Shown here in pieces: positions 6,111 through 63,475 of a stretch of DNA of 64,000 nucleotides (its first letter is position 1; every line of letters begins with the position of its first letter). The DNA is taken from NCBI GenBank assembly GCA_041489155.1, contig JBGPQP010000001.1, forward strand, positions 87,824 through 151,823. The letters are read 5' to 3'. The notes under the pieces are model-generated. The model worked only from the letters and a program-made list of their open reading frames with translations. It was not told where the DNA came from and made no database searches. The position numbers and the translations under genes were made by a program. Origin of the DNA: Candidatus Aenigmatarchaeota archaeon. Its GTDB lineage: Archaea; Aenigmatarchaeota; Aenigmatarchaeia; QMZP01; QMZT01.

Positions 6111-6236
6111 CACCTTTATTTCCACTGGAGTTTTGTTTTTTGTTTTAAAGCTAAACTTTACGTATACGTATACGTATTATAACGATGTTATAAGTTTCCA
6201 CAGGAAATTAAAATATAGTTCCACAGGAAATTGGGG
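6111..6236. promoter_or_regulatory. Predicted replication origin (oriC): three ORB elements around an AT-rich unwinding element
   Basis: Minus-strand ACTCCAGTGGAAATAAAGGTG (6111-6131); plus-strand GTTTCCACAGGAAAT (6194-6208) and GTTCCACAGGAAATTGGGG (6218-6236). AT-rich spacer, directly upstream of cdc6. Confidence 0.8.
6159..6176. repeat. (TACGTA)x3 palindromic tandem repeat
   Basis: TACGTATACGTATACGTA read directly; an 18-bp perfect palindrome. Confidence 0.9.
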
Positions 6237-7498: not shown

Positions 7499-8386
7499 AT
7501 GGCCAAGCTTATGAACAAAAAAGACATAATCGATTTGTTTCTTAAAAACGGCGTCATGCTCGCGCCGGATGAACTGGAAAACATCAGCGAGCAGAACTAC
7601 ATGCAGGTGCTCGAGAAAAAGCTTGGCGAGACGAATGACGAGATATTGATCGCCAAACAGAGCAGCGGTAAAATTTCATGCGGCGATTTCATAAAATTAT
7701 GCAACAGGAAATTCGAGTTCCTCAGGGAGATCCTGCTTAAAAAAACAGACGCCGTGTCGATAAACAAGGGAAGGAAGGTTTTTGCCGAGGCGACAATCAT
7801 AGGAAGGGTGAAGGAAAGGAACGCAAACGGATTCGTGCTCGAAGATGTAACGGGAGAGACAGAAGTAGTGAGTGAAAACAACGACATAAAAACAGGCGAT
7901 ATTGTCGGTTTGCGCGGCTTTTTCAAGGAGAATCGTTTTTTCCCGAACCAAATCATATGGCCCGACATCCCGCTCGAGAATAATCCAAGGCCACCCGGCA
8001 TAAAAATCACGCTCACAACTAGGGCAAAAGACAGCATGGCCGGCCTGATAGTATGCTCTTCCGGCGGCAAGGCTAGCAACATGATATCCGGGTTCGGAAG
8101 GCTCGGATCCATAAAAATAAAAAAGCATGGCAGCGAAATTCATCTGCTCGCCTTTTCGCCTGAAAAGGAGATGAGCGAGGATGATACTGTCAAAACGCTC
8201 AAGAAAAGGCAGATATCAGATGACGGCATCGCTGACAACCTGATAGCCGAGATACCAGGAATTTTCTGGCTTTTCAACAACGGCAAAAACTGGACCAAAA
8301 ATTACAGGGGCGTTGTCGTAATATCAAGCGATTCAGGAAGTTTTGCGGAATATGACAACGGGGAAGTCCACTTCGCGGGCTTGTAG
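7499..8386 (+). CDS. Shortened, catalytically degenerate homolog of DNA polymerase D small subunit (DP1; B-subunit-like)
   Basis: DP1-like N-terminal domain (FLKNGVMLAPD), DF...RKFEFLREIL, OB fold (IIGRV...LEDVTG...DIVGLRG...WPDIP), and C-terminal LKKRQI...DNLIAEIPGIF...YRGVVVIS. No DxH, GD, GNHD or GHxH metal ligands. Confidence 0.75.
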   Translation: MAKLMNKKDIIDLFLKNGVMLAPDELENISEQNYMQVLEKKLGETNDEILIAKQSSGKISCGDFIKLCNRKFEFLREILLKKTDAVSINKGRKVFAEATIIGRVKERNANGFVLEDVTGETEVVSENNDIKTGDIVGLRGFFKENRFFPNQIIWPDIPLENNPRPPGIKITLTTRAKDSMAGLIVCSSGGKASNMISGFGRLGSIKIKKHGSEIHLLAFSPEKEMSEDDTVKTLKKRQISDDGIADNLIAEIPGIFWLFNNGKNWTKNYRGVVVISSDSGSFAEYDNGEVHFAGL

Positions 8387-8422
8387 AGTTGAAGCTTTAA
8401 TATAAATCCACCAAGAATTAAT

Positions 8423-9097
8423 ATGCTCAAAATACTCGTCATCGCGGACATACATGGGGAGTTCGAGAAGTTCTCAAAAATCATAGACAAGCTCAGCGGC
8501 AGGGATTTTGACCTGGTGATCTGTCCCGGTGACTTTACCGACATATTCAATATACCTGAAGGCTATTCCCAGATGGACATAGCCGAACTGATAGTCCAGA
8601 AACTGCTCTCGCTGGGCAAGCCTCTCTTCTGCATACCTGGCAACCACGAACCTTATGAAATAATAGACGTGTTCGATGAATACAACGTGAACCTGCATGA
8701 AAGAACGAGGAAGTTCAACGATTTCGAGTTCGTGGGCTTCGGCGGGGCAGCAACACCATTCAACACCAAGTTCGAGCCCACGGATGAGGAAATAAAACAG
8801 GCGCTTGAGAGAAAGACCAAGGAAATAAAAGGCAAATTTATACTGGTCACGCACAACCCGCCGCTTGGTACCAACTTGGACAAGGTTGAAACAGGAGAAC
8901 ATGTCGGCTCGAAAGCGATTCGCGAATTCATAGAGCAGCGAAAGCCCCTGCTTGCGATATCCGCCCACATACACGAGGCAGGAGGCACGGACAAGCTTGG
9001 AAGCACGACCATATTCTATCCGGGCGTTGCCTACGAAGGGTATTACGGCCTTGTTGAGATAGGTGATGAAATAAAATGCGAGATAAAAAAGATATGA
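8423..9097 (+). CDS. Calcineurin-like metallophosphoesterase
   Basis: ADIHG, GDFTD, GNHE, THNPP, AHIHE motifs. Confidence 0.9.
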   Translation: MLKILVIADIHGEFEKFSKIIDKLSGRDFDLVICPGDFTDIFNIPEGYSQMDIAELIVQKLLSLGKPLFCIPGNHEPYEIIDVFDEYNVNLHERTRKFNDFEFVGFGGAATPFNTKFEPTDEEIKQALERKTKEIKGKFILVTHNPPLGTNLDKVETGEHVGSKAIREFIEQRKPLLAISAHIHEAGGTDKLGSTTIFYPGVAYEGYYGLVEIGDEIKCEIKKI

Positions 9098-9108
9098 TTC
9101 CCTTTCTA

Positions 9109-9828
9109 TCAGACAATGTCTTTCAGCCTGTTCATTATCTCTTCTATTGACTCGATCCTGCACAAAGCCACGGGTATGCTCTCGACTTCAGCGATGTTCA
9201 TGGCAACTTCATTCACCTTGTCTATGCCGTGAAGCACGACCAGACCGGGCTGCAGACCGGTGAGCTTGATGGCAACCATTGGCGTTTTTCCGGTAGTCAC
9301 GCCCGTGAAGAGAAGGGCGCGTTGTGTCGTAGTTCCATAAAGCTGGATCAGCTGGTTGTGTGAAAGCTCCAGTATTGCCTTCACAGAGTCTACAATGGTG
9401 TAACCGTATATTTCCCTGTCAATGGGGGCACGTTTTGTTATTATGCCTGCGTTTATTTTCCTGCAGAAATCCTCTACAGGGACGCCGCTAGAAAATTCGC
9501 GTATGTCTATTATCGCCTTGGAAAGGTTCGAAGTGCTGGCGACCTGGGCGAAGGTCTTGAGAACATTTCCGCCCCTTTTGATGTCAAGACCTATCAGCGA
9601 ATTGACGTACCTCTTTATGACGTTTATGCCTGGCGATTTCCTTCTGCCTGATTCATAGTCGGATATGACAGATGACGTAATGCCAATGTACTCGGCGAGC
9701 CTCTTCTGCGAAAAACCGAAGATTACCCTCCATTTCTTCAGGACCTGCTCGGGTTTTTCGGACAGTATGATTTCTCCTGTTATATCCTTTGCTAGCCTGT
9801 CTCTTGAAAGGTTAAATTCGTCAACCAT
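9109..9828 (-). CDS. Archaeal XRE-HTH transcriptional regulator (COG1709-like)
   Basis: KKWR..F..SQKRLA...SSVISDYESGRRKSPG HTH; C-terminal RALLFTGVTTGKTPMVAI. Confidence 0.85.
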   Translation of the reverse strand: MVDEFNLSRDRLAKDITGEIILSEKPEQVLKKWRVIFGFSQKRLAEYIGITSSVISDYESGRRKSPGINVIKRYVNSLIGLDIKRGGNVLKTFAQVASTSNLSKAIIDIREFSSGVPVEDFCRKINAGIITKRAPIDREIYGYTIVDSVKAILELSHNQLIQLYGTTTQRALLFTGVTTGKTPMVAIKLTGLQPGLVVLHGIDKVNEVAMNIAEVESIPVALCRIESIEEIMNRLKDIV

Positions 9829-9978
9829 AGAATAAATTTACGTCAATTATTTAAATATATATATGTTTTGTACGTCTGATGTGCGTATGTTGTTTAATCG
9901 TGTTTGCGGTCTTGGCTTGTTTAAACAAATGTTTATGTTTAAACTCAACTTCTTAAGCCGCTGTTTGAATTTCTAAAA

Positions 9979-11205
9979 ATGTTCCTGGAGATTTTGCTTT
10001 TTGTTCTCCTCGGAATCGTGCTTGGTTTCTTCACAGGGCTCGCGCCAGGCATACATCCCAACACAATATTTGCCTTTACGCTTTCCCTTTCGTTTCTGTT
10101 TATCGGTTTTCCGATTCAGGCAATACTGGCCTTCGTTGTTTCACTGGCGGTTTCGAATACATTTTTTGATTTCATCCCATCAATATTTTTCGGAGCACCA
10201 GAGGAAGATTCGGCGATTTCGGTTCTTCCTGGCCACAGGATGCTGCTGAAAGGGAGAGGATACGAAGCAATTTTCCTCACTGCGATGGGAGGGCTGGGGG
10301 TCATGTTTCTCACGGTTATGAGCCTGCCATTCCTTTTCGTCCTTCTGCCGTCGATCTACTTTGTTATAAAACCCGTGATCCACATCATCCTCATAACAGC
10401 TGTTTTATGGATGGTCTGGATGGAAAGAGGAACGAAAAAACGATTGGCAGCGGCTTCAATATTTCTCGCATCCGGCATTTTCGGTTTCATTACACTCAAT
10501 TCTTTGCCTTCGGACGGAGCGCTGTTCCCCGCCCTCACAGGCCTTTTCGGCCTGAGCACGATCCTTACAAGCATCATGGAGAAGACAAGGATACCGCCGC
10601 AGAAGATACGGAGCGAAGTTCACGGAAACTGGCTAAAGGGGAGTCTGGCAGGCTGGATTGCCGGCATGATTTCCGGGCTGCTTCCTGGTCTGGGTTCTTC
10701 TCAGGCAGGCATAATTGCAGCCCAAGCGCTAAAAGCCAAGATGAAGGAGTTCCTCATCGCCCTTGGCGGCATAAACACGTCCAACATGTTTTTCACGTTC
10801 ATTGTCTTCTATCTGCTCGGTAAAACGAGATCCGGCGCTGTATGGATGATTTCACAGATTATGGACCAGTTCACAGTGCAGGACATGGGCATCATTGTCG
10901 TGGTCGGAGTGATTACCGCGCTTGTTTCCGCAGTAGCCACCATAAAAGCAGCCAGACTGCTTCTGGGTTTCATGAGAAAACTAAACTACACCAAGACTAT
11001 GATAATCACGGCCTGCGTGCTTTCTGTAATGATCGTGGCTTTATCAGGGCCGCTGGGAGTTATGATTTCGGTAACAGGAACCTTTCTGGGTCTGTTGGCG
11101 GTGTCAACAGGCATCAAAAGAACGAATCTCATGGGGTTTTTAATATTGCCAACCATCCTTTACTTCTCCGGCTTCAACCCGTTCTTTTCAGGAATATTGT
11201 GGTAA
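9979..11205 (+). CDS. Tripartite tricarboxylate transporter TctA-like membrane protein (DUF112)
   Basis: GLAPGIHPN, FIPSIFFGAP, SVLPGH...GRGYEA, PALTGLFG; many TM helices. Confidence 0.85.
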   Translation: MFLEILLFVLLGIVLGFFTGLAPGIHPNTIFAFTLSLSFLFIGFPIQAILAFVVSLAVSNTFFDFIPSIFFGAPEEDSAISVLPGHRMLLKGRGYEAIFLTAMGGLGVMFLTVMSLPFLFVLLPSIYFVIKPVIHIILITAVLWMVWMERGTKKRLAAASIFLASGIFGFITLNSLPSDGALFPALTGLFGLSTILTSIMEKTRIPPQKIRSEVHGNWLKGSLAGWIAGMISGLLPGLGSSQAGIIAAQALKAKMKEFLIALGGINTSNMFFTFIVFYLLGKTRSGAVWMISQIMDQFTVQDMGIIVVVGVITALVSAVATIKAARLLLGFMRKLNYTKTMIITACVLSVMIVALSGPLGVMISVTGTFLGLLAVSTGIKRTNLMGFLILPTILYFSGFNPFFSGILW

Positions 11206-11400
11206 CCCCTTCATTTCCTGTGAAACATGAGCAAAACAAGCTTATATAGGACATGTTTTAAAATATAATTTCCATAAGAAATGAAGGTTGTTTCACCTTC
11301 ACCGTGAAATTACCAGCGTTGAAAATGAAGGTATCCTTCGTGAACTTCATGCAAAACTCCACAGGAAACAGAGGGGGTTCATACTTCATGGTGAAGTTCA
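11206..11400. promoter_or_regulatory. Second ORB cluster (candidate origin/Orc1-binding site) between convergent genes
   Basis: Minus GTTTCACAGGAAATGAAGGGG (11206-11226); plus TTTCCATAAGAAATGAAGG (11269-11287); plus CTCCACAGGAAACAGAGGGGG (11357-11377). AT-rich stretch at 11240-11270. Confidence 0.7.
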
Positions 11401-11432
11401 TTTGCTCGGCATGCTCAAGCCGAACCTTATAA

Positions 11433-14072
11433 TCAGATTACAATGCTGCTGGCAGGTCCTTGCGGCGAAGAGAACAGCAGTAAACCACCGCATTCGCAGG
11501 CTCCGCTTAGCGGAGGCATCGCATATGTTTTGCAGCATTTTTTGCAGATGAAGCCGTTAAAGTCTTTCATGGAAACTTCCTTCGCTTCAATCGCTTTTCC
11601 GCCATTTCCGTTCAATATGCCGAACAAATCGATCTGCTTGCCTTTGCCAAGAAGCTCGGTCTTTGAAATGCCTAGCGCATCGAATATTCGTTCGAGCGGA
11701 GGAAGCAGCTGGTTTTCTATGTAGTACTTCGAGTCTATTTCCAGCCCCCGTTCCATGACGTAAACCGGGTCTTCCGCCCTTTTTGACAGGAGATCGAGGC
11801 CTTTTATTATCACATAACCAATCCTGTCCCCGACGCCTGGCGCTTCAGCCGGCGTGCGTTTCTTTATCTTTTTCACGAGTTCTGCATGCGGCTGCATGCC
11901 GTCATAGCGTTCCGCTCCTTTGGTCATGGTCTTGGTTATTATCAGCTTCTGTATGGGTATCCCGCCAGTGACCATTTCATCAGTAACGTTTTTGAAATAT
12001 TTCACAGCCTGCTTGATGTCATTTGCCTTGAGTATGGTTTCCAAAATCTTCTCTATTGTTTCTGATGTAAGATCGCACCAGTCTCTCCGGACGGTTTCAA
12101 TACCCTTCGTTTCTATGCTTTCAACCCAGCTCCCGTTGACGTAATCGAAACGCCATGCAGCATAGCGTTTTTTTGTGAGAGGCAGGAAGCGCTTGAAAAT
12201 TTTCTCGAAATCAAGTTCCATCACGCCCTTCAGGCCTGACGTAACGTTTTTGGCCACTTCGTCTCCGGCTTTCTTCATCTCATCGAGATCCTCGAAAGGC
12301 ACCTTGACCATCACGGAATCCGTGTCACCGTAAACGACCCTGTAGCCGAACTTCTCCTCTATGTATTCTTTCGTCTTCTTTATGGTTTCCCTTCCGAATC
12401 CGGTTATCGAGTTGGCTATTTCAAGAGAGTAGATTTTCGCTCTGGGGTAGCCGAAATAGCCATAGAAGGCGTTGGCCATTATCTTGAGGGCGAACTGCTT
12501 CGCTTTCAGTTCACGTATGCGTTCAGGCTTCGGCTCCTTCTTCATTTCCCTTTTCACGTTTTGCCTCTCCTTCATAAGATGCTCCAGTATCCGTGGTATT
12601 ATCCCCTTCCTGACGTTTTCTGGCACGAATCTCGCCCCGGACGGCGACTGCACGGCGCCCTCGATTTCTCCGTCCAGAAGCAAAGTCGTCGGGCACATGT
12701 TATACGTCCGGATGAGCGAAGGGTACATGGACTTGAAATCAAGCACAAGGACGCTTGAGTGCAGGCCCTTGTCAGGTTCTATAACGAAACCGCCTTTCAA
12801 TTCGACCTTTCTGGCGTTTTCCCGCTTGGCGACTTCCATGTTGTCCGACTTGCATGGAATTATGAAGTTCTCTTTATTGAACTCCCTCAGTATAAGGTTT
12901 TCGATCCTCGTGGTCTCGCCGGAATCAAGTATGTCCTGCAGTAGGATTCCTGAAATCTTGGAAAGAGCAATGTACTTGTCCAGCAGGTTGAGTTTCAGCA
13001 AAAGGTTCATCGCGATAACGGAGTCCTTTTTCGCGTAATTCACCAGAAGCCTGAATTTTTCCTGGTTGCCCTTCCAGAGCTTTTCTATCTCCGATTTCTT
13101 CACAGGTTCCTTTTCCTCGCCGAGCAGCTCAAGACCCACGGTGTTCAGGTCATATCTCTTGAGGGAGAAGTCACGTTTGACAATTTCAAAGGAATCAACT
13201 ATTACCCTCCCGGATATGTTTATCTTGAATCTGCTCATCATCTGGTGTTTCGTAACGGGTTTTGTGCACCTACCGAAACTCGCGAATACCCCTCTTTCCT
13301 TCATTCTGTCGAGTATGTAGGGTATGTCGAAGTTATTGACGTTGAAGCCGGTGATGATGTCAGGGTCATAGTCCATTATTACGTCTATCAGTCCCCTGAG
13401 CATTTCACTTTCGTCCTCAAAAAAGGTAACGTCCTTGTCGGACCTCGTGCTCAGCACCATTTCCTTCCTCCCCTTGTGCGCATCGCTGAAAACGAGCGAA
13501 ATCATTATTATCGGGTCCTTCCTGCCGTCAGGCATTTCCCCCTCTTTAAGCGAAACGCACTCTATGTCAAGTGCCAGATATTTCAGCGGCGCGATGCCAT
13601 CCTTGTCGGCATGCCTGAATTCCTTTATTTTTATCCTTTTTTCCGTTTTCACGGTGTTCGTCGGGACGCCGTTCGTGTCTTCAACTTCCAGCCAGTCCAT
13701 GCCCTTTAGGCCGAAGTCCGCCATGAACCTGTATTTGAAAGGAATGTCAGCCTCGAAGACACGGAAGCCTCTTGACATGAGCTTTTCCCTCAGCTCAGGC
13801 GTCTTTGCAGGATTTTTTATTACGACTTTCCAGACATCCTTCATCTCCGTCTGGTAGCCGAGCGGAAGGAATTTTTTCACCTTCTCCAGACGCACGAAAT
13901 TCGCTTCGTTCTTTACATGATCCTCGATATTGTTTCCGAGCACGTAGAAATAGGGCTCGAAATTCTCGTAGAAACCGCATACGGTTTCGCCATTTTCAGT
14001 CTTGCCGAAAAGCCTTATTATCGGCTTTTCGTCGACCAGCGTGTAGTCCACGTCGAGTATCTGGAAAAGCAT
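11433..14072 (-). CDS. polB: Family B DNA polymerase, Pol-delta-like, with C-terminal PIP-like box and DP2-type Zn finger
   Basis: Exo I DIEC, Exo II FNVNNFD, Exo III YAKKD; DFKSMYPS, KIMANAFYG, YGDTDS, KKRY, KGIETVRRDWC. C-terminal QIDLF and CKKC...PPLSGACECGG. Confidence 0.96.
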   Translation of the reverse strand: MLFQILDVDYTLVDEKPIIRLFGKTENGETVCGFYENFEPYFYVLGNNIEDHVKNEANFVRLEKVKKFLPLGYQTEMKDVWKVVIKNPAKTPELREKLMSRGFRVFEADIPFKYRFMADFGLKGMDWLEVEDTNGVPTNTVKTEKRIKIKEFRHADKDGIAPLKYLALDIECVSLKEGEMPDGRKDPIIMISLVFSDAHKGRKEMVLSTRSDKDVTFFEDESEMLRGLIDVIMDYDPDIITGFNVNNFDIPYILDRMKERGVFASFGRCTKPVTKHQMMSRFKINISGRVIVDSFEIVKRDFSLKRYDLNTVGLELLGEEKEPVKKSEIEKLWKGNQEKFRLLVNYAKKDSVIAMNLLLKLNLLDKYIALSKISGILLQDILDSGETTRIENLILREFNKENFIIPCKSDNMEVAKRENARKVELKGGFVIEPDKGLHSSVLVLDFKSMYPSLIRTYNMCPTTLLLDGEIEGAVQSPSGARFVPENVRKGIIPRILEHLMKERQNVKREMKKEPKPERIRELKAKQFALKIMANAFYGYFGYPRAKIYSLEIANSITGFGRETIKKTKEYIEEKFGYRVVYGDTDSVMVKVPFEDLDEMKKAGDEVAKNVTSGLKGVMELDFEKIFKRFLPLTKKRYAAWRFDYVNGSWVESIETKGIETVRRDWCDLTSETIEKILETILKANDIKQAVKYFKNVTDEMVTGGIPIQKLIITKTMTKGAERYDGMQPHAELVKKIKKRTPAEAPGVGDRIGYVIIKGLDLLSKRAEDPVYVMERGLEIDSKYYIENQLLPPLERIFDALGISKTELLGKGKQIDLFGILNGNGGKAIEAKEVSMKDFNGFICKKCCKTYAMPPLSGACECGGLLLFSSPQGPASSIVI

Positions 14073-14211
14073 ATTGAGATTTGCCTGCGCAATATTAAAA
14101 CCATTTCGTTATCCAAAAGTATACTTTGAAAAATGGATTTCACAGGACCGAAATTTTTAATAAAACGCTGGGTTTTTAAACCAATTGCCACAATAATCTT
14201 TATTGGTCGCT

Positions 14212-14541
14212 ATGAAAATGGATCCGAAACACATGGAGAAAATGATGAAGCAGATGGGCATGAATGTCACAAACATCGACGCAGAAGAGGTCGTGATTCG
14301 CACGCCCGATAAGGACATCATTATAACGAATCCCCAGGTCTCGAAAATTAAGGCAATGGGGCAGGAGACCTTCCAGATTTCAGGCGACGTCAGCGAGAGG
14401 GAAAGAAGCGACGAGGACGTCAGCGAAGACGACGTCGAGATGGTCGCAGAACAGGCAGGCGTTTCCAAAGAGGAAGCAAGGGAAATGCTGCGCGAGACAG
14501 GCGACATCGCCGAGGCTATAATGCGGCTCAAAAAGGAATAG
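14212..14541 (+). CDS. nac: Nascent polypeptide-associated complex protein
   Basis: KMMKQMG...AEEVVI...PQVS...GQETFQI; UBA-like DVEMVAEQAGVS...GDIAEAIM. Confidence 0.92.
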   Translation: MKMDPKHMEKMMKQMGMNVTNIDAEEVVIRTPDKDIIITNPQVSKIKAMGQETFQISGDVSERERSDEDVSEDDVEMVAEQAGVSKEEAREMLRETGDIAEAIMRLKKE

Positions 14542-48804: not shown

Positions 48805-50079
48805 ATGAAATTGAACGACATAAAAAAAAGGAAGACAAAAATCTGCGTCGTGGGAATCGGTCAGGTTGGTTTAAGGGTTTGTGGCCTCTTTGCCAGTTCA
48901 AAATTCCATACGGTTGCCTATGACATCGACAAGGCCAAGATTGAAAAAATAAATGCCGGAAAATCGCCTATTGATGATAACGGCCTCGGAAAAATAATAC
49001 CGGAGGCAAAAAAGAAAGGTTTTCTAGAAGGCACAACTGACCCGTCAAAAGCGAAGGATTGCGATTTCGTGATAATATGCGTCAATACCCCTGTCAGAGA
49101 CAATCAACCCGATCTCGTTCCTCTCGAATCAGCTGTCAATACCATCGCTAGACATATGAAGAAAAATTCGATAATGGTGGTCGAGAGCAGCATATACCCG
49201 GGAGTCATAGACAATGTGGTCAGAAGGATACTTGATAAACACAATTTAACAGTTGGAAAAGACATAGGACTTGCCCACTGTCCCGAAAGGATAGACCCGG
49301 GTAACATGAAATACAAGATTGAGAAAATACCAAGAGTTTTGGCCGGGAGCGACAAGAAAACAACCGAACTGGTAAAGAAGCTTTACCAGGAAGTTCTTAA
49401 GGCCGATGTGCATGTGGTATCGAACATCAAAACAGCGGAAATGATAAAACTGGTTGAAAACACTTTTCGCGATGTTAACATAGCTCTTGTCAATGAACTC
49501 GCAAAGGTGACGGACGGCACGGAAATAAGAATGAAGGAAGTAATAGATGGCGCTTCGACGAAACCATTTGCCTTCGTGCCTCATTACCCGGGACCTGGTG
49601 TAGGGGGAGAATGCATACCAGTTGACCCTTACTGGCTTATAGCGTATGCAAGGGCGTTGGGCAGGGACGTAAGGCTTGTTGAAACCGCAAGAGAAATCAA
49701 TGACAGGATGCCCTATTTTATAGTAAAAAAGATCTTGGACGCAGGCTTTTCAAAAATACTGGTTCTGGGCCTCACGTACAAGCCTCATGTAAAGGATCTG
49801 AAAAACACACCTGCCATGCCTATTATAGATGAGCTTAAAAAAAACAGGTGCAGAGTTTCGGCTTACGACCCCCTTTTAACGAGAGATGAAATTAAAAACA
49901 CATTCAAGGTTGATGCCGGCAGCTTTAATGAAAACTATGACTGCGTGCTGGTACTTAACAACGACGAGAAGTTTTTAAGGATATTAAAAAATGTTAAAAC
50001 AAAAGTCATTTTCGACACCAAGAATTTCCTTAAAAGAGGAGATTTGAATAAAAATATAAAATATTGGTCTTTGGGATGA
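48805..50079 (+). CDS. UDP-N-acetylhexosamine 6-dehydrogenase (WecC/TviB family)
   Basis: GIGQVG, CVNTP, ESSIYPG, PERIDPG, KLVENTFRDVN, GVGGECIPVDP. Confidence 0.9.
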   Translation: MKLNDIKKRKTKICVVGIGQVGLRVCGLFASSKFHTVAYDIDKAKIEKINAGKSPIDDNGLGKIIPEAKKKGFLEGTTDPSKAKDCDFVIICVNTPVRDNQPDLVPLESAVNTIARHMKKNSIMVVESSIYPGVIDNVVRRILDKHNLTVGKDIGLAHCPERIDPGNMKYKIEKIPRVLAGSDKKTTELVKKLYQEVLKADVHVVSNIKTAEMIKLVENTFRDVNIALVNELAKVTDGTEIRMKEVIDGASTKPFAFVPHYPGPGVGGECIPVDPYWLIAYARALGRDVRLVETAREINDRMPYFIVKKILDAGFSKILVLGLTYKPHVKDLKNTPAMPIIDELKKNRCRVSAYDPLLTRDEIKNTFKVDAGSFNENYDCVLVLNNDEKFLRILKNVKTKVIFDTKNFLKRGDLNKNIKYWSLG

Positions 50080-51020
50080 AACGCACTGTACTAGTCACGG
50101 GAGGAGCGGGGTTCATAGGCTCGCACCTATGTGAAAAACTTCTGCAAAAAGGAAACCGTGTCATAGCCCTTGACAATTTTCTCACAGGGAAGATGGCCAA
50201 CATAAACCATCTGACCAGAAACAAGGAATTTGAAATAGTCAAATGCGATATTCTCGAAAGGAAAAATCTTGAAAAAATTTTCGAAAATCACATCGATACG
50301 GTTTTTCATGAAGCCGCGGTAGTGGGCGTGAAAAGAACCATAGAGAATCCAAAGCTCGTGCTAGAAGCCAACATATCTGGAACCAAAAACATTCTCGACT
50401 GCGCAAAGAACTCTGGTTGCAAGAGGATGGTTTTTGCATCTTCCTCGGAGGTTTACGGCGATCCGATTAAAATACCGGAAAGGGAGGATGGCCTTCTTAA
50501 CCCCAAACTCCCTTACGCCGTAAGCAAGCTCACGGGAGAACAATATTGCAGGGCTTATTTCGAGGAGTTCGGCCTTAAGACGACCTCCCTGCGTTACTTT
50601 AATGTTTATGGCCCTCGTCAGAATTCGACGCCATACGGTTTCGTAGTCGGAATTTTCATAAAAAGGGTTCTGGAAGGAAAGCCTCCGATAATTTTTGGTG
50701 ACGGAAAACAAACAAGAGATTTCACCTACATAGAAGATTGCATTGATGCAACGCTTATTGCTTCCCAAAGCAACAAAGCTGTCGGCGAGGTCATGAACAT
50801 AGGCACCGGAAGAATGATAAGCATAAAAGATCTGGCCTTCATGGTAATCGACATATCTGGAAACGACCTGAAACCCAAGTTCGCGCCGAAAAGAGAATTT
50901 GAAATAATGCACAGACTTGCGGACAACACAAAAATGAAAAAATTGCTTGGTTTCTCGCCTGGATACAGTTTGAAAAGCGGCCTTGAAAAAACAATTGAGT
51001 GGTACAAAAACAATTGCTAG
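50076..51020 (+). CDS. UDP-sugar 4-epimerase family SDR
   Basis: TGGAGFIG, SSSEVYG, YAVSK, YFNVYGP, QTRDF. Confidence 0.88.
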   Translation: MKRTVLVTGGAGFIGSHLCEKLLQKGNRVIALDNFLTGKMANINHLTRNKEFEIVKCDILERKNLEKIFENHIDTVFHEAAVVGVKRTIENPKLVLEANISGTKNILDCAKNSGCKRMVFASSSEVYGDPIKIPEREDGLLNPKLPYAVSKLTGEQYCRAYFEEFGLKTTSLRYFNVYGPRQNSTPYGFVVGIFIKRVLEGKPPIIFGDGKQTRDFTYIEDCIDATLIASQSNKAVGEVMNIGTGRMISIKDLAFMVIDISGNDLKPKFAPKREFEIMHRLADNTKMKKLLGFSPGYSLKSGLEKTIEWYKNNC

Positions 51021-51032
51021 AAAAAAATTTTA

Positions 51033-52229
51033 TCAATTAAAACCTTTTGACAACCTTTTGTAGACATTCAGGTATTTTTCACCCTGCTTGTCCCAGCCAA
51101 TTTCATTTGCTGTTTTTATGCAGTTTTTGGACATTTTTCTCATCATGGTTTCATCATTCAAAAGATATTCTATTGCCCCCCTGTAGCTTTCTGGATTAAG
51201 GCCATCCAGAGCAAAGCCGTTTTTGCCATCCTTTACAATTTCAGACGCGCCGCAGTTTTTGCTTATTATTACAGGTGTTCCGCATGCCATAGCTTCTGCA
51301 ATCACGATTCCAAACGCATCGTATCTTGAAGGCAGAATAAAGAAGTCTGCGGCATTGTAAAGAAGGTTCAGTTTTTCAGGCAAAGCTCCACCCAAGAACT
51401 TGACGTTTTTTACCTTTTCAAATACGTTTAGGCCGCCCCAATCTTTCCAACCAACTGCTAACAGTTCAACATCTCCCATGTTTTTGACAGCGTCAACCGC
51501 TATGTCTAGGCCTTTTATAACAGGCACAACCCCTACCCAAAGTCCATATTTTTTGTTTTTTTTAAGGCCGAGCAAAGATTTGGCCTTATCCTTTTCAATC
51601 GGATTAAAAACCTCCCTGTTCACGCCGTTGTAAATGACTTCTACTTTCTTTCGCTCCACCCCGTAAAGTTCCACAATTTCTCTTTTAACTTTATCCGAGC
51701 AAGCGACTATCAGGTCAGATTTTTTTGCAGATATCAGGTCGGCCATATAGCGCGTATTGCTGAAGAAATATTTTTTGAAATATTTTTCATAAATATATGC
51801 CGCATTACTTTTAAAAAATCCCACATGACGGTATTTTATACCAGCTTCCCTGAAATCGAGCTTATAAGTTATGTAGGCATTGCCCTGAAAAGTTGTCAAG
51901 AAAGGTGCTTTACCTTTGTTCATCGCATAACCAAATGCATTGTCAGCATGGCCATGTATTATGCAGTCTTCATTTTTTGGCAGCAATTTTTTAACCTCTC
52001 CGGCAGCCTTGAAGTTGTACAGAAATTTGTTTATAAATGGATGTCTTGTCTGCTTCAAAGAAATTATTTTCCCGATTTCGGTGGTTTTTTCATAAGATTT
52101 TTTATCATAACATATGTTTGTGACATCATGCCCAGTTCTCTGCAAAAAGGCACTCAGGTTCATTATTGTGGTCTCCACTCCTCCACAGGGCGGGACTGGC
52201 GCTGCAGCGCCTATCATGTAGATTTTCAT
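51033..52229 (-). CDS. GT4 glycosyltransferase
   Basis: GGVE, IYNGV, PSRYDAFGIVIAEAMACGTP. Confidence 0.88.
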   Translation of the reverse strand: MKIYMIGAAAPVPPCGGVETTIMNLSAFLQRTGHDVTNICYDKKSYEKTTEIGKIISLKQTRHPFINKFLYNFKAAGEVKKLLPKNEDCIIHGHADNAFGYAMNKGKAPFLTTFQGNAYITYKLDFREAGIKYRHVGFFKSNAAYIYEKYFKKYFFSNTRYMADLISAKKSDLIVACSDKVKREIVELYGVERKKVEVIYNGVNREVFNPIEKDKAKSLLGLKKNKKYGLWVGVVPVIKGLDIAVDAVKNMGDVELLAVGWKDWGGLNVFEKVKNVKFLGGALPEKLNLLYNAADFFILPSRYDAFGIVIAEAMACGTPVIISKNCGASEIVKDGKNGFALDGLNPESYRGAIEYLLNDETMMRKMSKNCIKTANEIGWDKQGEKYLNVYKRLSKGFN

Positions 52230-52301
52230 TTTTAACACATTTTTATTAATTTATTCTTAATATCGAATTAATCTTATAAATAAATAATTCAAACTTGTGG
52301 T

Positions 52302-53183
52302 ATGAATATGATAAGGAACCTGTTGATTTCACTGCGGCCTGAACAATGGTACAAAAACTTGGTCATATTTATCGGTATAATCTTTTCGATGAAGCTACTG
52401 GAAACGCAATTATGGCTAAACGCTCTATCGGCGTTCGCAATATTCTGTATGCTTTCAGGTAGCTCATATATAGTAAATGACGTATTCGACGCGGAAAAAG
52501 ACAGGGGTCATCCAAAAAAGAGCAAAAGACCGATAGCTTCGGGAAAACTTAAGACAGGCTACGCATTAGTATTTTCCGTGATTATAATAGTGTTAACCCT
52601 CTTATGGTCTTTGAACATTAATCAGCAATTCTTTTTGACAACTGTAGTTTTTGTGCTCATCAATCTGACCTATTCGCTATGGCTAAAGCATATTGCAATC
52701 GTTGATGTTTTGCTAATTTCAATAAATTTTGTTATAAGGGCGACTGCTGGTTGCTTAGCGGTTTTTGTATCTATTTCTCCATGGATAACGCTGTGCGCCC
52801 TGCTGCTCGCGCTTCTGCTCGCGCTTGGTAAGAGAAGGCATGAAATCACCCTGCTCGGGAAAAACAGCAGGAATCACCGCAAAACTCTTGAGAGATACCC
52901 CAAAGAGATGCTGGAGCAGATGATGAGCATAACCGCTGGTTCGCTCATAGTTTCATATTCGATATTCACCTTTTTCAGCAGGAGTGCATATATGATGGTG
53001 ACTATACCGATTGTGATATATGCTATTTTCAGATACCTTTTCCTAGTGCACTACAAAAGCATCGGTGGAGAGCCGGAGCTCATTTTTAAAGACAGAGGGA
53101 TGATAATAAGCATAATTATTTGGGTGATTTTGTGTATTTACATACTCTACGACATCCAAATGTTTGCTGGCATGATGATATAA
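52302..53183 (+). CDS. UbiA-family polyprenyl-phosphate phosphoribosyltransferase (DPPR synthase-like)
   Basis: RPEQWYKN, NDVFDAEKDRGHPKKSKRPIASG, YSLWLKH...D, KRRHE. Confidence 0.88.
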   Translation: MNMIRNLLISLRPEQWYKNLVIFIGIIFSMKLLETQLWLNALSAFAIFCMLSGSSYIVNDVFDAEKDRGHPKKSKRPIASGKLKTGYALVFSVIIIVLTLLWSLNINQQFFLTTVVFVLINLTYSLWLKHIAIVDVLLISINFVIRATAGCLAVFVSISPWITLCALLLALLLALGKRRHEITLLGKNSRNHRKTLERYPKEMLEQMMSITAGSLIVSYSIFTFFSRSAYMMVTIPIVIYAIFRYLFLVHYKSIGGEPELIFKDRGMIISIIIWVILCIYILYDIQMFAGMMI

Positions 53184-53210
53184 TCATCGTGCTTCTTAAG
53201 GAGAAAACAC

Positions 53211-54203
53211 ATGGCAACAGAAAAGATTTTCGTGACCGGTGCGCCGGGCTGGCTAGGCAATCGTTTTGTGGAAATGCTTACTGAAAAGAAAAGAGACGTA
53301 CGCTGCCTTGTTCTCAAAAACATGGACTACAGCTATCTTAAAAAATTGGGTGCCGAAGCAGTCGAAGGAGACATAACAAGACCAGAAACCCTGAATAACG
53401 TGGCTAGTGACGTCGAAACAGTCTTCCACCTGGCCGGCATAATACATCCGAAGTTGTTTGGAGGCGGTGACTTTTTCAAAATAAACACCCATGGAACGAA
53501 GAACATGCTTGATGCAGCGATAAAGTCCGGCGCAAAGAGATTCGTTTACATAAGCAGCAATTCACCGGTGGGAGTAAATTATGACAGAAATATCCTAATG
53601 AACGAATACACTTTTCCAAAGCCCTACATGAATTACGGCAGGAGCAAACTTCTTGCGGAGAAGGCCGTTAACGAGGCTTTCGTCCAAGGGAAGATAGAGA
53701 CCGTTATAATCAGGCCTTGCTGGTATTACGGACCAGGCCAGCCGAAAAGACAGACCAGGCTGATGAAAATGATAAAAGAAGGCAGAGCTCTCCTGTTCGG
53801 CGATGGCACGAATCTTAGGAGCATGACCTACATAGAAAACCTGTGCGATGCCATGCTGCTGGCAGAGAAAAGCAAAATAGCAAGCGGCGAGACATACTGG
53901 ATTGCCGATGAAAGGCCCTACACGACCATAGAGATATATAATGTGATTGCCAGCCTTCTTGGAGTCGATCTCAGGATAAGGAAAATACCGGGAATGGTTT
54001 CCGACGCCGTGAGAATCGCCGACAGTGCGCTGCAGAAGCTGCACCTTTATCAGCAGGAAATTCACGTAGCCGGCGAAATGAACGTCAACATAGCCTGTAG
54101 CATAGAAAAGGCCAAGAAGGACCTTGGCTACAAGCCAAGAGTCGATCTGAAAGAGGGCATGAAGCGTTCTATAGACTGGGCAAAAAAACAAGGCATGATT
54201 TGA
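53211..54203 (+). CDS. Extended SDR NAD-dependent epimerase/dehydrogenase
   Basis: TGAPGWLG, YGRSK, RPCWYYGP. Confidence 0.85.
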   Translation: MATEKIFVTGAPGWLGNRFVEMLTEKKRDVRCLVLKNMDYSYLKKLGAEAVEGDITRPETLNNVASDVETVFHLAGIIHPKLFGGGDFFKINTHGTKNMLDAAIKSGAKRFVYISSNSPVGVNYDRNILMNEYTFPKPYMNYGRSKLLAEKAVNEAFVQGKIETVIIRPCWYYGPGQPKRQTRLMKMIKEGRALLFGDGTNLRSMTYIENLCDAMLLAEKSKIASGETYWIADERPYTTIEIYNVIASLLGVDLRIRKIPGMVSDAVRIADSALQKLHLYQQEIHVAGEMNVNIACSIEKAKKDLGYKPRVDLKEGMKRSIDWAKKQGMI

Positions 54204-54223
54204 ACATAACAAAGAGGCAAAAG

Positions 54224-55258
54224 ATGACTTCGCTTATAACCGGAGGCTCTGGATTCTTGGGCACCAATCTTGCGGAGAAGCTTCTGGAGAGAGATGAAGA
54301 TGTCGTAATATATGACCTTTTTCAACCCTACCATGAAATTGCAAAAAAGGTAGAATTCATACAGGGCGATGTGCTTGACAAGGCAAAAATAACAGCTGCC
54401 TGCAAGAATACGGATGCAGTTTACCATTTTGCAGCCCTAGTTCCGATATCAAAGGCCGGCGCAAAATTCAAGACGGTAAACGCTGACGGTACGAGAAACG
54501 TTGCCGATGCCTCGCTTAAAAACGGGATCAGAAAGTTCATTCATATGTCTTCCAGCGCAGTTTATTCCCACGAAAACAGGATGCCAATAAATGAGAACTC
54601 TGCCATAAAGCCAGTCGGTGATTACGGCAGAGCAAAATACGAGGCAGAGCTAATTGTACAGGAATTCGGAAAAAGAGGCCTTGATTATACGATAATCAGA
54701 CCAAGAACCATTGTAGGCGAAAAAAGGGCAGGCATATTCCAGATACTTTACGACTGGGTTCATGATGGCAAAACCATATACGTCGTTGGTGACGGAAACA
54801 ATTTGTTCCAGATGGTGAGCGCGTCAGATTTGTGCGATGCCTGCTATGCCGCTTCGAAATCCAAGAAAAGCTCAGGAGAAACAATAAACATAGGAGCTGA
54901 AAAATACGGGACAATGGACCAGCTAATACAAGACCTCATAGAGCATGCGGGCACGGCTTCCAGAATAAAACACTTAAACATGGGTTTTGCCAGATTCTCG
55001 CTTAAGATACTGGACAAACTTCAACTATCGCCCTTAACTGAATTTCATTATACTACGCTAGGAAAGCCATTTTATTTTGACATAACCAAGGCCAAAAAAC
55101 TTCTTGGATGGACATCGAAAGACAGCAATAGTGACATGATAACAAATAGCTACGATTGGTACATCGCTCACAGAGAAGAAGTTGCTTCGGTCAAGGGATC
55201 CGCCCACAGAGGCCCTCCAAAACAAAAGTTCCTGAGCCTGCTCAAAAAAATATCCTGA
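54224..55258 (+). CDS. Extended SDR NAD-dependent epimerase/dehydrogenase
   Basis: TGGSGFLG, SSSAVY, YGRAK, RPRTI. Confidence 0.85.
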   Translation: MTSLITGGSGFLGTNLAEKLLERDEDVVIYDLFQPYHEIAKKVEFIQGDVLDKAKITAACKNTDAVYHFAALVPISKAGAKFKTVNADGTRNVADASLKNGIRKFIHMSSSAVYSHENRMPINENSAIKPVGDYGRAKYEAELIVQEFGKRGLDYTIIRPRTIVGEKRAGIFQILYDWVHDGKTIYVVGDGNNLFQMVSASDLCDACYAASKSKKSSGETINIGAEKYGTMDQLIQDLIEHAGTASRIKHLNMGFARFSLKILDKLQLSPLTEFHYTTLGKPFYFDITKAKKLLGWTSKDSNSDMITNSYDWYIAHREEVASVKGSAHRGPPKQKFLSLLKKIS

Positions 55259-55271
55259 ACATGGTGTTTAA

Positions 55272-55649
55272 ATGGCGAGTAAAAATTTTCTGAATTATTT
55301 TTTAATTGCATCGTTCTGTAGTCTCATAGATTTGGCAGTGCTTTACATCCTAACAGATATCGCGGGTTTTTTTTATTTGTTGTCTGCCACATTCAGTTTT
55401 ATCGCAGCACAGATTTTGAACTATTATCTAAACAAGACATTAAATTTTAATGACAGCAGTAAAAAAACATCAAAGCAGCTGACCATTTTCGTTCTGGTAA
55501 ATACAATAGGTCTATGTATAAGCTTACTCATTCTCGCCTTTTTGGTAGAGGTATTGGATGTATGGTATATTTTTGCGAAAATAGTCTCGATGCTCCTAGC
55601 CTTTAATTTTAACTATTACATCCACAAAAATTATACCTTTGCACCGTAG
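55272..55649 (+). CDS. GtrA family lipid-linked sugar translocase
   Basis: 125 aa, 4 TM helices, D...NYYLNK..F...NY..HK.YTF pattern. Confidence 0.85.
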   Translation: MASKNFLNYFLIASFCSLIDLAVLYILTDIAGFFYLLSATFSFIAAQILNYYLNKTLNFNDSSKKTSKQLTIFVLVNTIGLCISLLILAFLVEVLDVWYIFAKIVSMLLAFNFNYYIHKNYTFAP

Positions 55650-55690
55650 TTTAGGTATCGCTTTTATTATGCCACATCGAACAAGCAAAA

Positions 55691-56626
55691 TTATACTTTA
55701 ACCTCAGTCCAATAATAAATGAAAAAAAGAGGGAATAACAAATCCCTTAGAAAACAAAAAAAGGTGAATAACAAACCTTCAATTATATTGAACTTTTTTC
55801 TCCGTAAACTAACAAAATATCGAAAAATAAAAATAACTAAAATGAACAGCAAGAACAGAAAGTATTGTTCAAATAAGAAAGAAATTATTATGGATAAAGT
55901 AATAAACCATGTAAAGAATGATTGCTTTACCGAACCTCTACAAATAAAACCAAAATGCTTTTTGTAAAGTTTTGAGTATTTCTTATAAAGGCGTACATCA
56001 TTTTTTACAAAAAATAATTCTTTTAAAATTGAAATTGGTTTGCGTCTGATGGTGATATGTTTTACTTTTACATTTTTATCGAAAATAATTTTTTTGTTTT
56101 TTTTAATAAACCTAAATGCTAGATCCGAATCTTCACGGAAGTAATTATAATTTTCATCAAACCCACCAATCTTTTCAAATTCGTCTTTTTTGTAAGCCAT
56201 ATCTGAGGTCATATATTTTCCACCATCGAGATTGACTATGGAATGATCAAATGGTTTTTCGATATTACCTACTGTAATACCTTCAACTGCAGAAGTATCT
56301 GGATTTCTTTCAAATGCCTTATTAATTTTTTTAAGCCAGTCCCTTTCAGGAATACAATCATCATCAGTAAAGGCAAGTATTGTTCCATTAGCCCTTTTTG
56401 CTCCGAAATTTCTTTTTTTATCCGCACCGATTGAGTATAGCCTAAAAAATTTAACATTCATAGCACTAGATGGTGATGACTGGAACTCCTCTGTTTTAGT
56501 ATCACTTACTACTATTACCTCATATTTTGATTTGGGATAATCTTGTTTTTCAAGTTCTTTAAGTAAATCAGTTATTAAATTATTTCTTCTGTGAGTAGGG
56601 ATAATAACACTGATAAATTCTTGCAT
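55691..56626 (-). CDS. GT2 glycosyltransferase with C-terminal TM helices
   Basis: SVIIPT, FTDDDC, GGFDE, REDSDL; AT-rich. Confidence 0.87.
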   Translation of the reverse strand: MQEFISVIIPTHRRNNLITDLLKELEKQDYPKSKYEVIVVSDTKTEEFQSSPSSAMNVKFFRLYSIGADKKRNFGAKRANGTILAFTDDDCIPERDWLKKINKAFERNPDTSAVEGITVGNIEKPFDHSIVNLDGGKYMTSDMAYKKDEFEKIGGFDENYNYFREDSDLAFRFIKKNKKIIFDKNVKVKHITIRRKPISILKELFFVKNDVRLYKKYSKLYKKHFGFICRGSVKQSFFTWFITLSIIISFLFEQYFLFLLFILVIFIFRYFVSLRRKKFNIIEGLLFTFFCFLRDLLFPLFFIYYWTEVKV

Positions 56627-56637
56627 CTATCAAAACC

Positions 56638-57198
56638 TTATATATTAAACATTTTCCTCTCAACTAAATCGCAAACTATGTGCAACGCGGTAATGTGAGC
56701 CTCTTGTATCCTTGGGGTTTGTTTCGATTGGATTTTCAGGCACAAATCAGTTTTTGTGGCTATGCCATCCTTGCCGGTAAGTGCTATGATCTTGAGCCTC
56801 ATTTTCCTGGCCTTTTCTACCGCCTTTATCACGTTTTTTGATTTGCCGCTGGTGCTTAACGCTATTAGCACGTCGTTTTTTCTTCCGAGTGCTTCAACCT
56901 GTTTCTCAAAAACGTGTTCAAAGCCGTAATCATTTGATACAGATGTCAAAATCGACATGTCATTTGTCAGTGAAATTGCCGGAAGGGGTCTGCGGTTCAT
57001 CATGAATTTGTTCATGAATTCCGCAGCAATGTGCTGGCTGTCGGTTGCGCTGCCTCCGTTGCCGCAAAGCATTATCTTGTTGCCTCTCTTGAAACAGTCG
57101 ATGATCATGTCTGCCATTTTTTCTATTATAATGAAATCCTTTAGCAGACGCTTTTTAGCGTCAATGCTTTCGTTGATGGACTTTTCAATTAAGTTCAT
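56638..57198 (-). CDS. gmhA: Phosphoheptose isomerase (canonical type)
   Basis: CGNGGS, QHIAAEF, SND, STSGKS, IQEAH. Confidence 0.9.
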   Translation of the reverse strand: MNLIEKSINESIDAKKRLLKDFIIIEKMADMIIDCFKRGNKIMLCGNGGSATDSQHIAAEFMNKFMMNRRPLPAISLTNDMSILTSVSNDYGFEHVFEKQVEALGRKNDVLIALSTSGKSKNVIKAVEKARKMRLKIIALTGKDGIATKTDLCLKIQSKQTPRIQEAHITALHIVCDLVERKMFNI

Positions 57199-57202
57199 GG
57201 CA

Positions 57203-58192
57203 TCACCTGTGTTTACTTTCGGAATAGAATTTAAATGGTATCTCCTTTGCTCCCAGCTTCCTGACTGCTTTCATCACGTCTTTCTTATTTTTGCAAATAA
57301 AGAAGGCACAGCCTCCGGCGCCAGCGCCAACAAACCTCCCTCCAAACGCCCCGGCTTCCATTGCAGCTTCGTAAATTTTGTCGGTGACGGAGTTGGAGAT
57401 ACATGAAGCAAGCTGCCTTTTCATTTCCCAATCTCTGGAAACAAGCGAGCCGAAATCTTCTATTCTGCCTGCTTCCAGCGTCTTTTTCACCGAAAGCACG
57501 TTATCAATTTTTGCGCGAAGTATGTCAATTCTCAAACTGCTCTTTTTTTTTAGCTCGTCATGGACCTCGTGCCCGGTCTTCCTTCTTTTCACATAAATCA
57601 GTAGCGTCTTTTTTTCAAGCTCTTTCATGGTTTTCTCGTTTATTCTGAGCGGGTGAACCTTGACCGTGCCCGGGAGAAATTCCATGTAATTGATGCCTGT
57701 GAAAGCAGCAGCCCACTGGTCCTGGTAGCCGCCGCTTTGTTTGATTACATTCCTCTCGATATGATATGCAAGTTTTGCAACGGCATCCGGCGATCTTTTT
57801 AGGCCGTTGAATTTGTCGAACGCCTTTATCAGCGCGACCGTGTGCGACGCTGACCCGCCTAAGCCGCTTTCCAGCGGGGCTTCCGTGCTGGTCGTGACCT
57901 CTATTCCTGTATTGCCATAATGTTTCGCGACAGCCTTCATGAGGTTAAGCTCTCTGGTGCCGTAATGGATTTCACGGAGCGAACTGAAGACAAGCCTGTG
58001 CCTTGTTTCCTTTGATGTCAGGACTATCTTGCTGTCATTCCTTTTGCGTATTTCGCAGCGTGCAAAAAGATTTATAGTAGCATTTATGCAGTTGCCCGCG
58101 CCAAGAAGTTTTATGTAATAATCGGTGTCGCCGCCGTTTGCAAAGCTGAGCCTCGTCGGCGCCTTCTCCTTTATAGTTAGCGCTTTTTTCAT
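57203..58192 (-). CDS. GHMP sugar kinase, HddA-like (divergent second copy)
   Basis: PTRLSFANGGDTD, PLESGLGGS, GGYQDQW, GAGAGG. Confidence 0.82.
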   Translation of the reverse strand: MKKALTIKEKAPTRLSFANGGDTDYYIKLLGAGNCINATINLFARCEIRKRNDSKIVLTSKETRHRLVFSSLREIHYGTRELNLMKAVAKHYGNTGIEVTTSTEAPLESGLGGSASHTVALIKAFDKFNGLKRSPDAVAKLAYHIERNVIKQSGGYQDQWAAAFTGINYMEFLPGTVKVHPLRINEKTMKELEKKTLLIYVKRRKTGHEVHDELKKKSSLRIDILRAKIDNVLSVKKTLEAGRIEDFGSLVSRDWEMKRQLASCISNSVTDKIYEAAMEAGAFGGRFVGAGAGGCAFFICKNKKDVMKAVRKLGAKEIPFKFYSESKHR

Positions 58193-58216
58193 AATTTTCT
58201 AATTTAGGGCAATTCT

Positions 58217-63384: not shown

Positions 63385-63475
63385 GAGTTTTATACACTTC
63401 CCTATACCTTTAACTACATCTACTAAAATCTTATAATGCTAAACCCTTTCATATAATGTAATATGGTGTAAAGAA

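Follow-up and report, generated by a model that had tools for sequence, protein, structure and literature searches.

The 64,000-nucleotide stretch of a Candidatus Aenigmatarchaeota archaeon genome analysed here (the window; contig C1:87824-151823 of a 1.13 Mb assembly in 39 contigs, 89.65% complete) carries, beside a putative replication origin, a nuclease-dead homologue of DP1, the small subunit of the archaeal DNA polymerase PolD, and a family-B DNA polymerase (PolB) that ends in a zinc finger resembling that of DP2, the catalytic PolD subunit. We consider it very probable that the window carries the origin region of a genome without PolD, in which the tailed PolB and the dead DP1 make up a two-subunit replicase of eukaryote-like construction. 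An earlier note, made from the sequence alone, had pointed to the same pair; what it observed is confirmed here and its functional interpretation is supported, as neither DP2 nor an intact DP1 was found in the genome, the two genes are linked, and binding between such proteins is reported in the main text of PMC12680538. Its suggestion that the linked, inactive DP1 partner might be new is not supported, since the partner is already described in the main text of Kazlauskas et al. 2020 (PMC7544198).

A DP1 homologue stripped of its nuclease motifs

The open reading frame (ORF) directly after the orc1/cdc6 gene encodes 295 residues, and its product is confirmed as a true homologue of DP1 and the B subunits, with an OB fold followed by a phosphodiesterase-fold domain. 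The NCBIfam DP1 model NF003118 matched residues 52-164 (E = 9.2e-15), far below the model's cut-off, as expected of a partial match. When a profile built from 34 members of the DP1-like family (A1) was searched against the PDB, a check of the homology that the earlier note had proposed, DP1 chains were the only matches at E <= 1e-5 (best E = 7.8e-8). Alignment of A1 by hhalign with five intact DP1 sequences from DP2-bearing Aenigmarchaeota genomes (A4) gave a probability of 99.2% and E = 5.5e-20 over residues 6-170, the range of the DP1 N-terminal helical domain and OB fold. Two further searches were weak, namely single-sequence phmmer against the PDB (E = 0.014) and a sub-threshold Pfam OB match (E = 0.049). 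Fifty homologues of the protein were found, sharing 38-92% identity and mostly 290-300 aa long.

An AlphaFold2 (AF2) model of the 295-aa protein has a mean pLDDT of 85.8, and Foldseek placed P. abyssi DP1 chains first among its matches (E = 2.4e-13) and eukaryotic B subunits next. Comparison of the model with P. abyssi DP1 (6t8h_A) by VIA gave Z = 18.4 at a root-mean-square deviation of 3.4 Å over 244 residues, and Z values of 14-17 were obtained against POLD2, Pol31, POLA2, POLE2 and Dpb2. Because model residues 47-295 align with residues 196-615 of the 6t8h_A chain, its last 130 residues correspond to the phosphodiesterase domain. The protein can be divided into an N-terminal helical domain (~6-41), an OB fold (~84-156) and a remnant of the phosphodiesterase fold (~165-295).

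That remnant has shrunk to ~130 aa. In an alignment with four intact DP1 sequences of the same phylum (472-494 aa), deletion or replacement has removed each of motifs I (SDLH), II (GDxxDG), III (GNHD), IV (H) and V (GHLH); ...IPDIFHSGHLHT in an intact DP1, for example, becomes ...IPGIFWLFNNGK in the 295-aa protein. Neither Pfam Metallophos (PF00149) nor DNA_pol_E_B (PF04042) matches the 295-aa protein; both match intact DP1 of the same phylum. The earlier description of the DP1 as degenerate is thus correct too. With all its catalytic motifs lost, this descendant of DP1 cannot be a nuclease, and it lacks what marks the small subunit of an active PolD: the five motifs are absent and the partner, DP2, was not found in the genome.

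The polymerase and its zinc-finger tail

The 879-aa PolB is encoded about 3 kb from the DP1-like ORF, as the earlier note had reported, and its C-terminus is ...FICKKCCKTYAMPPLSGACECGGLLLFSSPQGPASSIVI, identical to the string quoted there. Pfam identified DNA_pol_B (E = 8.5e-111) and DNA_pol_B_exo1 (E = 2.3e-43), and the exonuclease motifs ExoI (DIE169), ExoII (NVNNFD244) and ExoIII (YAKKD346) are present together with polymerase motifs A (DFKSMYPS445), B (KIMANAFYG530) and C (YGDTDS581). As these catalytic motifs are intact, PolB would supply both the polymerase and the 3'-5' proofreading activity. The label 'Pol-delta-like' fits the best PDB match, the catalytic subunit of human Pol delta (E = 3e-122), with Thermococcales PolB close behind (E = 1.5e-119). 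Between the thumb and the finger lies a box resembling the PCNA-interacting protein (PIP) motif, whose Q is conserved in almost all of 18 aligned PolB tails and through which PolB may bind PCNA.

The finger that follows the PIP-like box reads F-I-C-K-K-C-x3-Y-x2-P-P-L-S-G-x-C-E-C-G-G, and the matching place in DP2 of the same phylum reads F-R-C-x2-C-x3-Y-R-R-P-P-L-S-G-K-C-x2-C-x-G. Its four Cys are invariant in 18/18 aligned PolB tails. A profile built from PolB tails only (A3) matched the C-terminus of DP2 in 7/7 DP2-bearing genomes, with E values of 1.4e-10 to 1.4e-6. The DP2 model TIGR00354 matched 79 genomes outside f8, the family to which all genomes with DP2 above the cut-off belong, and in most of them it did so over positions ~1003-1074 only, in the tails of ~870-960-aa frames. 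Judged by their sequences, the PolB finger and the DP2 zinc finger are homologous, reciprocally at the profile level. The earlier claim of a DP2-type finger stands, with the caveat that PolB has kept nothing but the finger and lacks the helices of the DP2 C-terminal domain.

The genome holds a second PolB of 833 aa (contig C7), which has no Cys tail and carries QSSLDAFV near its C-terminus. On five contigs of the phylum (G106:C2, G116:C96, G064:C4, G022:C67 and G119:C16) the open frame that contains the PolB tail extends to 1317-1730 aa, compared with the usual ~900, and the tblastn match of PolB at one of these loci (L034, on G106:C2; L034 3758-7900) is interrupted by a 1.4-kb insert after residue 538. 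The oversized frames are likely to reflect an intein or other insertion in PolB.

Distribution in the phylum and the origin neighbourhood

The earlier note had asked whether intact DP1 and DP2 occur elsewhere in the genome, and neither was found. The DP2 models PF03833 and TIGR00354, whose positive controls matched in three archaeal genomes, gave no match in the window's own genome, and no intact DP1 there passed the DP1 model, whose sole matches were the 295-aa gene and a small OB protein. Full DP2 was equally missing from the 12 other sampled genomes of the window's family (0/12).

Co-occurrence was surveyed in 151 genomes of the phylum from 28 GTDB families, 144 of them outside f8. A DP1 or DP1-like match is present in 140 of the 151, and DP2 exceeds the cut-off in only seven, comprising all seven f8 genomes and none of the other 144. 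The DP1 frames of f8 are full-length (460-523 aa, one of 858), with motifs I-V confirmed in the four that were aligned. The PolB-tail profile matches 145/151 genomes; in the seven from f8 the best match falls inside DP2, and no tailed PolB appears in that family among the matches listed. Two f8 genomes (G005 and G027) also show a weaker second match to the tail profile, located in frames of just 224 and 203 aa. Outside f8, DP1-like and PolB-tail matches are found together in 131/144 genomes, among the 137 tail matches listed. Of these 131 genomes, 121 have both on the same contig no more than 6.5 kb apart, and 117 have them within 5 kb. The PolB tail is co-directional and ~3 kb downstream of the DP1-like gene, in an operon-like order, in 91/121 cases; the two are on opposite strands, as in the window, in 28, and co-directional with the tail upstream in two. 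The DP1-like gene and tailed PolB are thus tightly linked in the phylum and mutually exclusive with DP2. Since the dead DP1 tracks the tailed PolB rather than DP2, the co-occurrence profiling that the earlier note had put forward as a check argues in favour of the pairing. One genome (G091) has DP1 beside a partial DP2 (profile positions 2-571, at a contig end, G091:C64) plus a contig with a PolB tail (G091:C30); the genome is either truly transitional or was mixed in binning.

The loss of the DP1 nuclease is graded across families. We aligned 28 DP1-like and four intact DP1 sequences, with 23 of the 28 GTDB families sampled. All five motifs are kept in f8 DP1. Motifs I, II, IV and V are retained in f11 (2/3 sequences), f12 (2/3, the third partly) and f17, at lengths of 362-407 aa, and motif III, GNHD, reads GE(I/L/M)x or GNMD in these motif-keeping sequences. 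The other 22 DP1-like sequences, the window's included, are 290-383 aa long and have no motifs or stray matches only, such as a lone GD or H in f10, f6 and f18; in most families all motifs are gone, together with ~180 residues. Loci at different stages of decay (L034, L053, L055, L062 and L033, compared with window positions 7991-8383) come from families that all carry tailed PolB; L034, L053, L055 and L062 belong to families that retain motifs I, II, IV and V. In a maximum-likelihood tree of the 32 sequences, 10/29 inner branches are well supported and several branches are long. The tree suggests that the motif-retaining sequences form two separate groups; as it is poorly resolved, loss events cannot be counted from it.

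The earlier placement of the pair 'at the origin' agrees with three boxes upstream of orc1 that flank an A+T-rich stretch (Table 1) and which we take to resemble the core of the archaeal origin recognition box (ORB). All three occurrences of the pattern TTCCANNGGA[AG] in the 64-kb window lie here, upstream of orc1, and a like box is present <=250 nt upstream of orc1 in 12/17 related loci. GC skew gave no clear origin signal in the window. An (ACGTAT)3 run lies at 6160-6177, inside the A+T-rich stretch between the boxes. The orc1/cdc6 product itself has Pfam Cdc6_C, Cdc6_lid and AAA domains.

Synteny was followed by tblastn of the window proteins on 20 fetched loci. In 18/18 loci with a DP1-like match, orc1 lies upstream of it on the same strand, with less than 100 nt between them in 16, and tailed PolB is present in 17/20 loci, the misses being a contig end, a PolB on another contig and the f8 locus. 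The window's family has one arrangement in 8/8 loci: orc1, DP1-like gene, phosphoesterase, a helix-turn-helix (HTH) gene on the opposite strand, TctA (in 7/8, where the contig reaches far enough), PolB on the opposite strand, and NAC. In orders other than the window's, PolB comes directly after the DP1-like gene. The phosphoesterase and XRE-HTH genes (window 8423-9828; loci L017-L031) accompany the origin region. Among six loci of the sister families f2-f4, five have the phosphoesterase on the far side of orc1, four of them with the HTH gene beside it, and the sixth has it ~7 kb upstream, at the edge of the locus; in two more distant loci orc1 is flanked by the HTH gene alone.

Table 1. Features of the window around the putative origin, the DP1-like gene and the tailed PolB gene
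Feature	Position	Strand	Remarks
Aminotransferase gene	end at 6102		followed by a 133-nt spacer before orc1/cdc6
Putative origin, three ORB-like boxes	6120..6232	+	boxes flank an A+T-rich stretch
ORB-like box TTCCACTGGAGTTT	6120-6133		spacer before orc1
ORB-like boxes TTCCACAGGAAATT, two copies	6196-6209 and 6219-6232		spacer before orc1
orc1/cdc6 replication initiator, 417 aa	6236-7489	+	NCBIfam NF001625, 509.3 bits (cut-off 501)
Nuclease-dead mini-DP1 (B-subunit-like), 295 aa	7499-8386	+	starts 9 nt after orc1/cdc6
Calcineurin-like phosphoesterase, 224 aa	8423-9097	+	E 8.6e-22; 36 nt downstream of the DP1-like ORF
XRE-type HTH protein, 239 aa	9109-9828	-
TctA-family membrane protein	9979-11205	+
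Family-B DNA polymerase, 879 aa, zinc-finger tail (probable B6-aenigma1 type)	11433-14072	-	3,047 nt beyond the DP1-like stop
C-terminal Cys4 finger FICKKCCKTYAMPPLSGACECGG, PolB residues 841-863	11484-11552	-	CxxC at 843, CxC at 859
PIP-like box QIDLFGIL, PolB residues 813-820	11613-11636	-	between thumb and zinc finger
NAC	14203-14541	+

Homologues of the window proteins, where named, are from Candidatus Aenigmarchaeota/Aenigmatarchaeota archaeon. No tRNA was found in the window, and Pfam identified no further replication genes among 17 more ORFs at 1.5-37 kb, which are housekeeping genes instead. The G+C content falls from 0.44-0.50 to 0.39-0.43 at 50001-64000, with 0.32 in the final 2 kb, and this stretch may represent an island or have another origin.

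A candidate two-subunit replicase and its relatives

The last ~40 residues of PolB are the zinc finger that in DP2 docks DP1, and in the arrangement that we propose the finger would bind the remnant phosphodiesterase/OB body of the dead DP1. The result would be a two-subunit replicase built like eukaryotic Pol delta, alpha or epsilon, from a PolB and an inactive B subunit, and the pair is presumably the main replicase of the organism. The B-subunit-like protein may then be a scaffold that holds the polymerase at the replisome by its N-terminal domain; this tethering is proposed by analogy, because the N-terminal domain of Thermococcus DP1 binds GINS (PMC9023282). The DP1 nuclease could decay because PolB proofreads.

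A number of observations weigh against this proposal. In the tail, the second Cys pair is CxC in 16/18 PolB tails (here C-E-C-G-G, 11484-11498) and not CxxC, the form found in DP2 and two distant PolB tails. TIGR00354 misses the window's own PolB tail at E <= 0.001, and Pfam has no match in the last 99 residues of PolB. Only ~16 residues follow the finger, and the ~60-residue helical region of DP2 is absent. In PolD, these helices of the DP2 C-terminal domain contribute to the contact with DP1. The main text of PMC12680538 calls the Aenigmatarchaeota PolB tail degenerate, with a different predicted structure, and the physical binding is likewise taken from that source, where it was obtained by two-hybrid assay with other Aenigmatarchaeota proteins than the window's pair. 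On the side of the DP1-like protein, hhalign against intact DP1 leaves the phosphodiesterase remnant, beyond residue 170, unaligned. Support for that part therefore comes from the predicted structure and from one HMMER stretch over the GHxH region, IEE(I/V)PD..., which is collinear but not significant (A1 against the PDB). The DP1-like and PolB genes form no operon in the window's family, because three unrelated genes and a strand switch intervene. As the genome is incomplete, DP2 is not found rather than proven absent, and the 833-aa PolB on contig C7 could share or assume the replicative role.

Some of these features would also suit a DP1-like protein that acts as an origin or replisome adaptor, working for instance with Orc1 or GINS and not binding PolB, with the finger serving some other end such as contact with DNA, PCNA or primase. 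Besides the missing helical part of the tail and a gene order by which PolB is not co-transcribed with the DP1-like gene in the window's family, the DP1-like gene lies within 100 nt of orc1 in 16/18 loci, and Euryarchaeota have an old and widespread linkage of cdc6 and DP1 at oriC, which PMC2643942 interprets as Cdc6 recruiting DP1. We nevertheless regard an adaptor of this kind as unlikely, given that PolB directly follows the DP1-like gene on the same strand in 91/121 same-contig cases, that tailed PolB and DP2 replace each other over the 151 genomes while DP1 or its DP1-like relative stays, and that the main text of PMC12680538 reports binding of Aenigmatarchaeota DP1 to tailed PolB; adaptor and PolB partner are, in addition, compatible roles.

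It is very improbable that PolD is present but unassembled and that the 295-aa protein is an additional DP1 paralogue in decay, with no replicase role. The genome is indeed 89.65% complete and in 39 contigs, and in G091 a tailed PolB coexists with a contig that holds DP1 and a partial DP2. Against this, DP2 exceeded the cut-off in 0/12 family genomes and 0/144 genomes outside f8, the 295-aa protein is conserved at 38-92% identity and is modelled at a pLDDT of 85.8, no in-frame stops occur in the 18 same-family and same-order rows checked, and two papers, in their main texts, independently report DP2 missing from the phylum (PMC7544198, PMC12680538). That the 224-aa phosphoesterase is the split-off nuclease half of DP1, the two ORFs together making an active DP1, is scarcely credible and was rejected on NCBIfam, PDB and synteny evidence: it is calcineurin-like, follows 36 nt downstream on the same strand and is adjacent in 8/8 loci of the window's family, but it matches no DP1 model in NCBIfam, its best PDB match is the unrelated hypothetical protein aq_1956 (E = 1.1e-7), it lies on the other side of orc1 or elsewhere outside that family, and the 295-aa protein has its own collinear phosphodiesterase remnant reaching the DP1 C-terminus.

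The pairing of such a PolB with a dead DP1 is already known, and the window pair is an instance of a described system from which nothing essential differs. As set out in the main text of Kazlauskas et al. 2020 (NAR, PMC7544198), a PolB group B6, with B6-aenigma1, falls in the Pol-delta-like clade, DP2 is absent from most Aenigmarchaeota, and an inactive 'Aenigma' DP1 group co-occurs with these PolBs; in the authors' proposal, PolB took over from DP2, and a group of this kind may be the ancestor of eukaryotic B subunits. The window pair shares with B6-aenigma1 and its DP1 the phylum, the finger-tailed PolB, the dead DP1 and the missing DP2: the host is an Aenigmarchaeota genome with an inactive DP1 in which DP2 was not found, and the PolB tail has one Cys4 motif, which resembles the DP2 finger most. 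The window PolB is probably Pol-delta-like as well, to judge from its domains, its catalytic motifs and its best PDB match. According to the main text of PMC12680538 (2025), only Aenigmatarchaeota and Baldrarchaeia keep DP1 without DP2, and in both clades AlphaFold3 and yeast two-hybrid assays indicate that DP1 binds to the tailed PolB but not to other PolBs. The Baldrarchaeia system, a PolB3 fused to the DP2 C-terminal domain, resembles the present one in the loss of DP2, the retention of DP1 and the two-hybrid binding; as described there, its tail is full length and like the DP2 and eukaryotic C-terminal domains in sequence and structure, whereas the Aenigmatarchaeota tail is shorter.

With archaeal PolD (P. 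abyssi 6HMS/6T8H) the pair has in common the small-subunit N-terminal domain, OB fold and phosphodiesterase fold, a homologous docking finger, and the position beside cdc6 and oriC (PMC2643942). It differs in that the catalytic subunit of PolD is the two-barrel DP2, here replaced by PolB, and in that the intact DP1 of the phylum has 472-494 aa, compared with a small subunit of 295 aa without nuclease motifs. Eukaryotic Pol delta, alpha, epsilon and zeta likewise combine a PolB catalytic subunit with a nuclease-dead DP1 homologue (POLD2/Pol31, POLA2/Pol12, POLE2/Dpb2). Their C-terminal domains, however, contain a pair of metal modules (CysA and CysB) with helices between them, in place of which the window PolB has a single Cys4 finger and ~16 residues after it, and the phosphodiesterase domain of their B subunits, though inactive, is still of full size (in chains of ~390-570 residues), as opposed to the ~130 aa found here.

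The gene order invites comparison with the island of Thermococcales and other Euryarchaeota. Berthon et al. 2008 (PMC2643942) describe oriC, cdc6 and the DP1 gene as neighbours in Thermococcales, Halobacteriales and Methanosarcinales, with cdc6, DP1 and DP2 together at oriC in P. abyssi, and this oriC-cdc6-DP1(-DP2) island has the same order of origin boxes, initiator gene and small-subunit gene as the window. In most Aenigmarchaeota orders the polymerase gene comes directly next, and the slot after DP1 is held by tailed PolB, not DP2. Given that neighbourhood, the Aenigmarchaeota layout can be read as the same island with tailed PolB in the DP2 slot. A bolder version, which we put forward tentatively and do not favour outright, is that the cluster is the positional descendant of the Thermococcales-type island, in which the catalytic body of DP2 gave way in situ to a PolB core, with nothing of DP2 surviving but its 3' finger codons, now the PolB tail; as PolB has an exonuclease itself, the DP1 nuclease would have become redundant and then have decayed stepwise, more than once within the phylum.

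Since the point was in print in 2020 and the binding was tested in 2025, the window is one more example of the system. The conserved ORB-orc1-DP1-like-PolB layout and the graded decay of the DP1 nuclease are small additions; as the words 'operon', 'neighbo(u)r' and 'adjacent' do not occur for these genes in the main texts of PMC7544198 and PMC12680538 or in one supplement of the 2020 paper, both may be unprinted. For specialists, the use lies in the phylum-wide counts, in the conserved position beside orc1 and the ORB-like boxes, and in the partly decayed DP1 families, which are natural candidates for dating the loss of nuclease activity. More broadly, the pair bears on the origin of eukaryotic replicative polymerases, as archaea can have a PolB docked by a PolD-derived finger to a nuclease-dead DP1. 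If the cluster does descend from the Thermococcales-type island, the phylum would be a living series of intermediates from a proofreading DP1 to an inert B subunit, the same transition that eukaryotes underwent.

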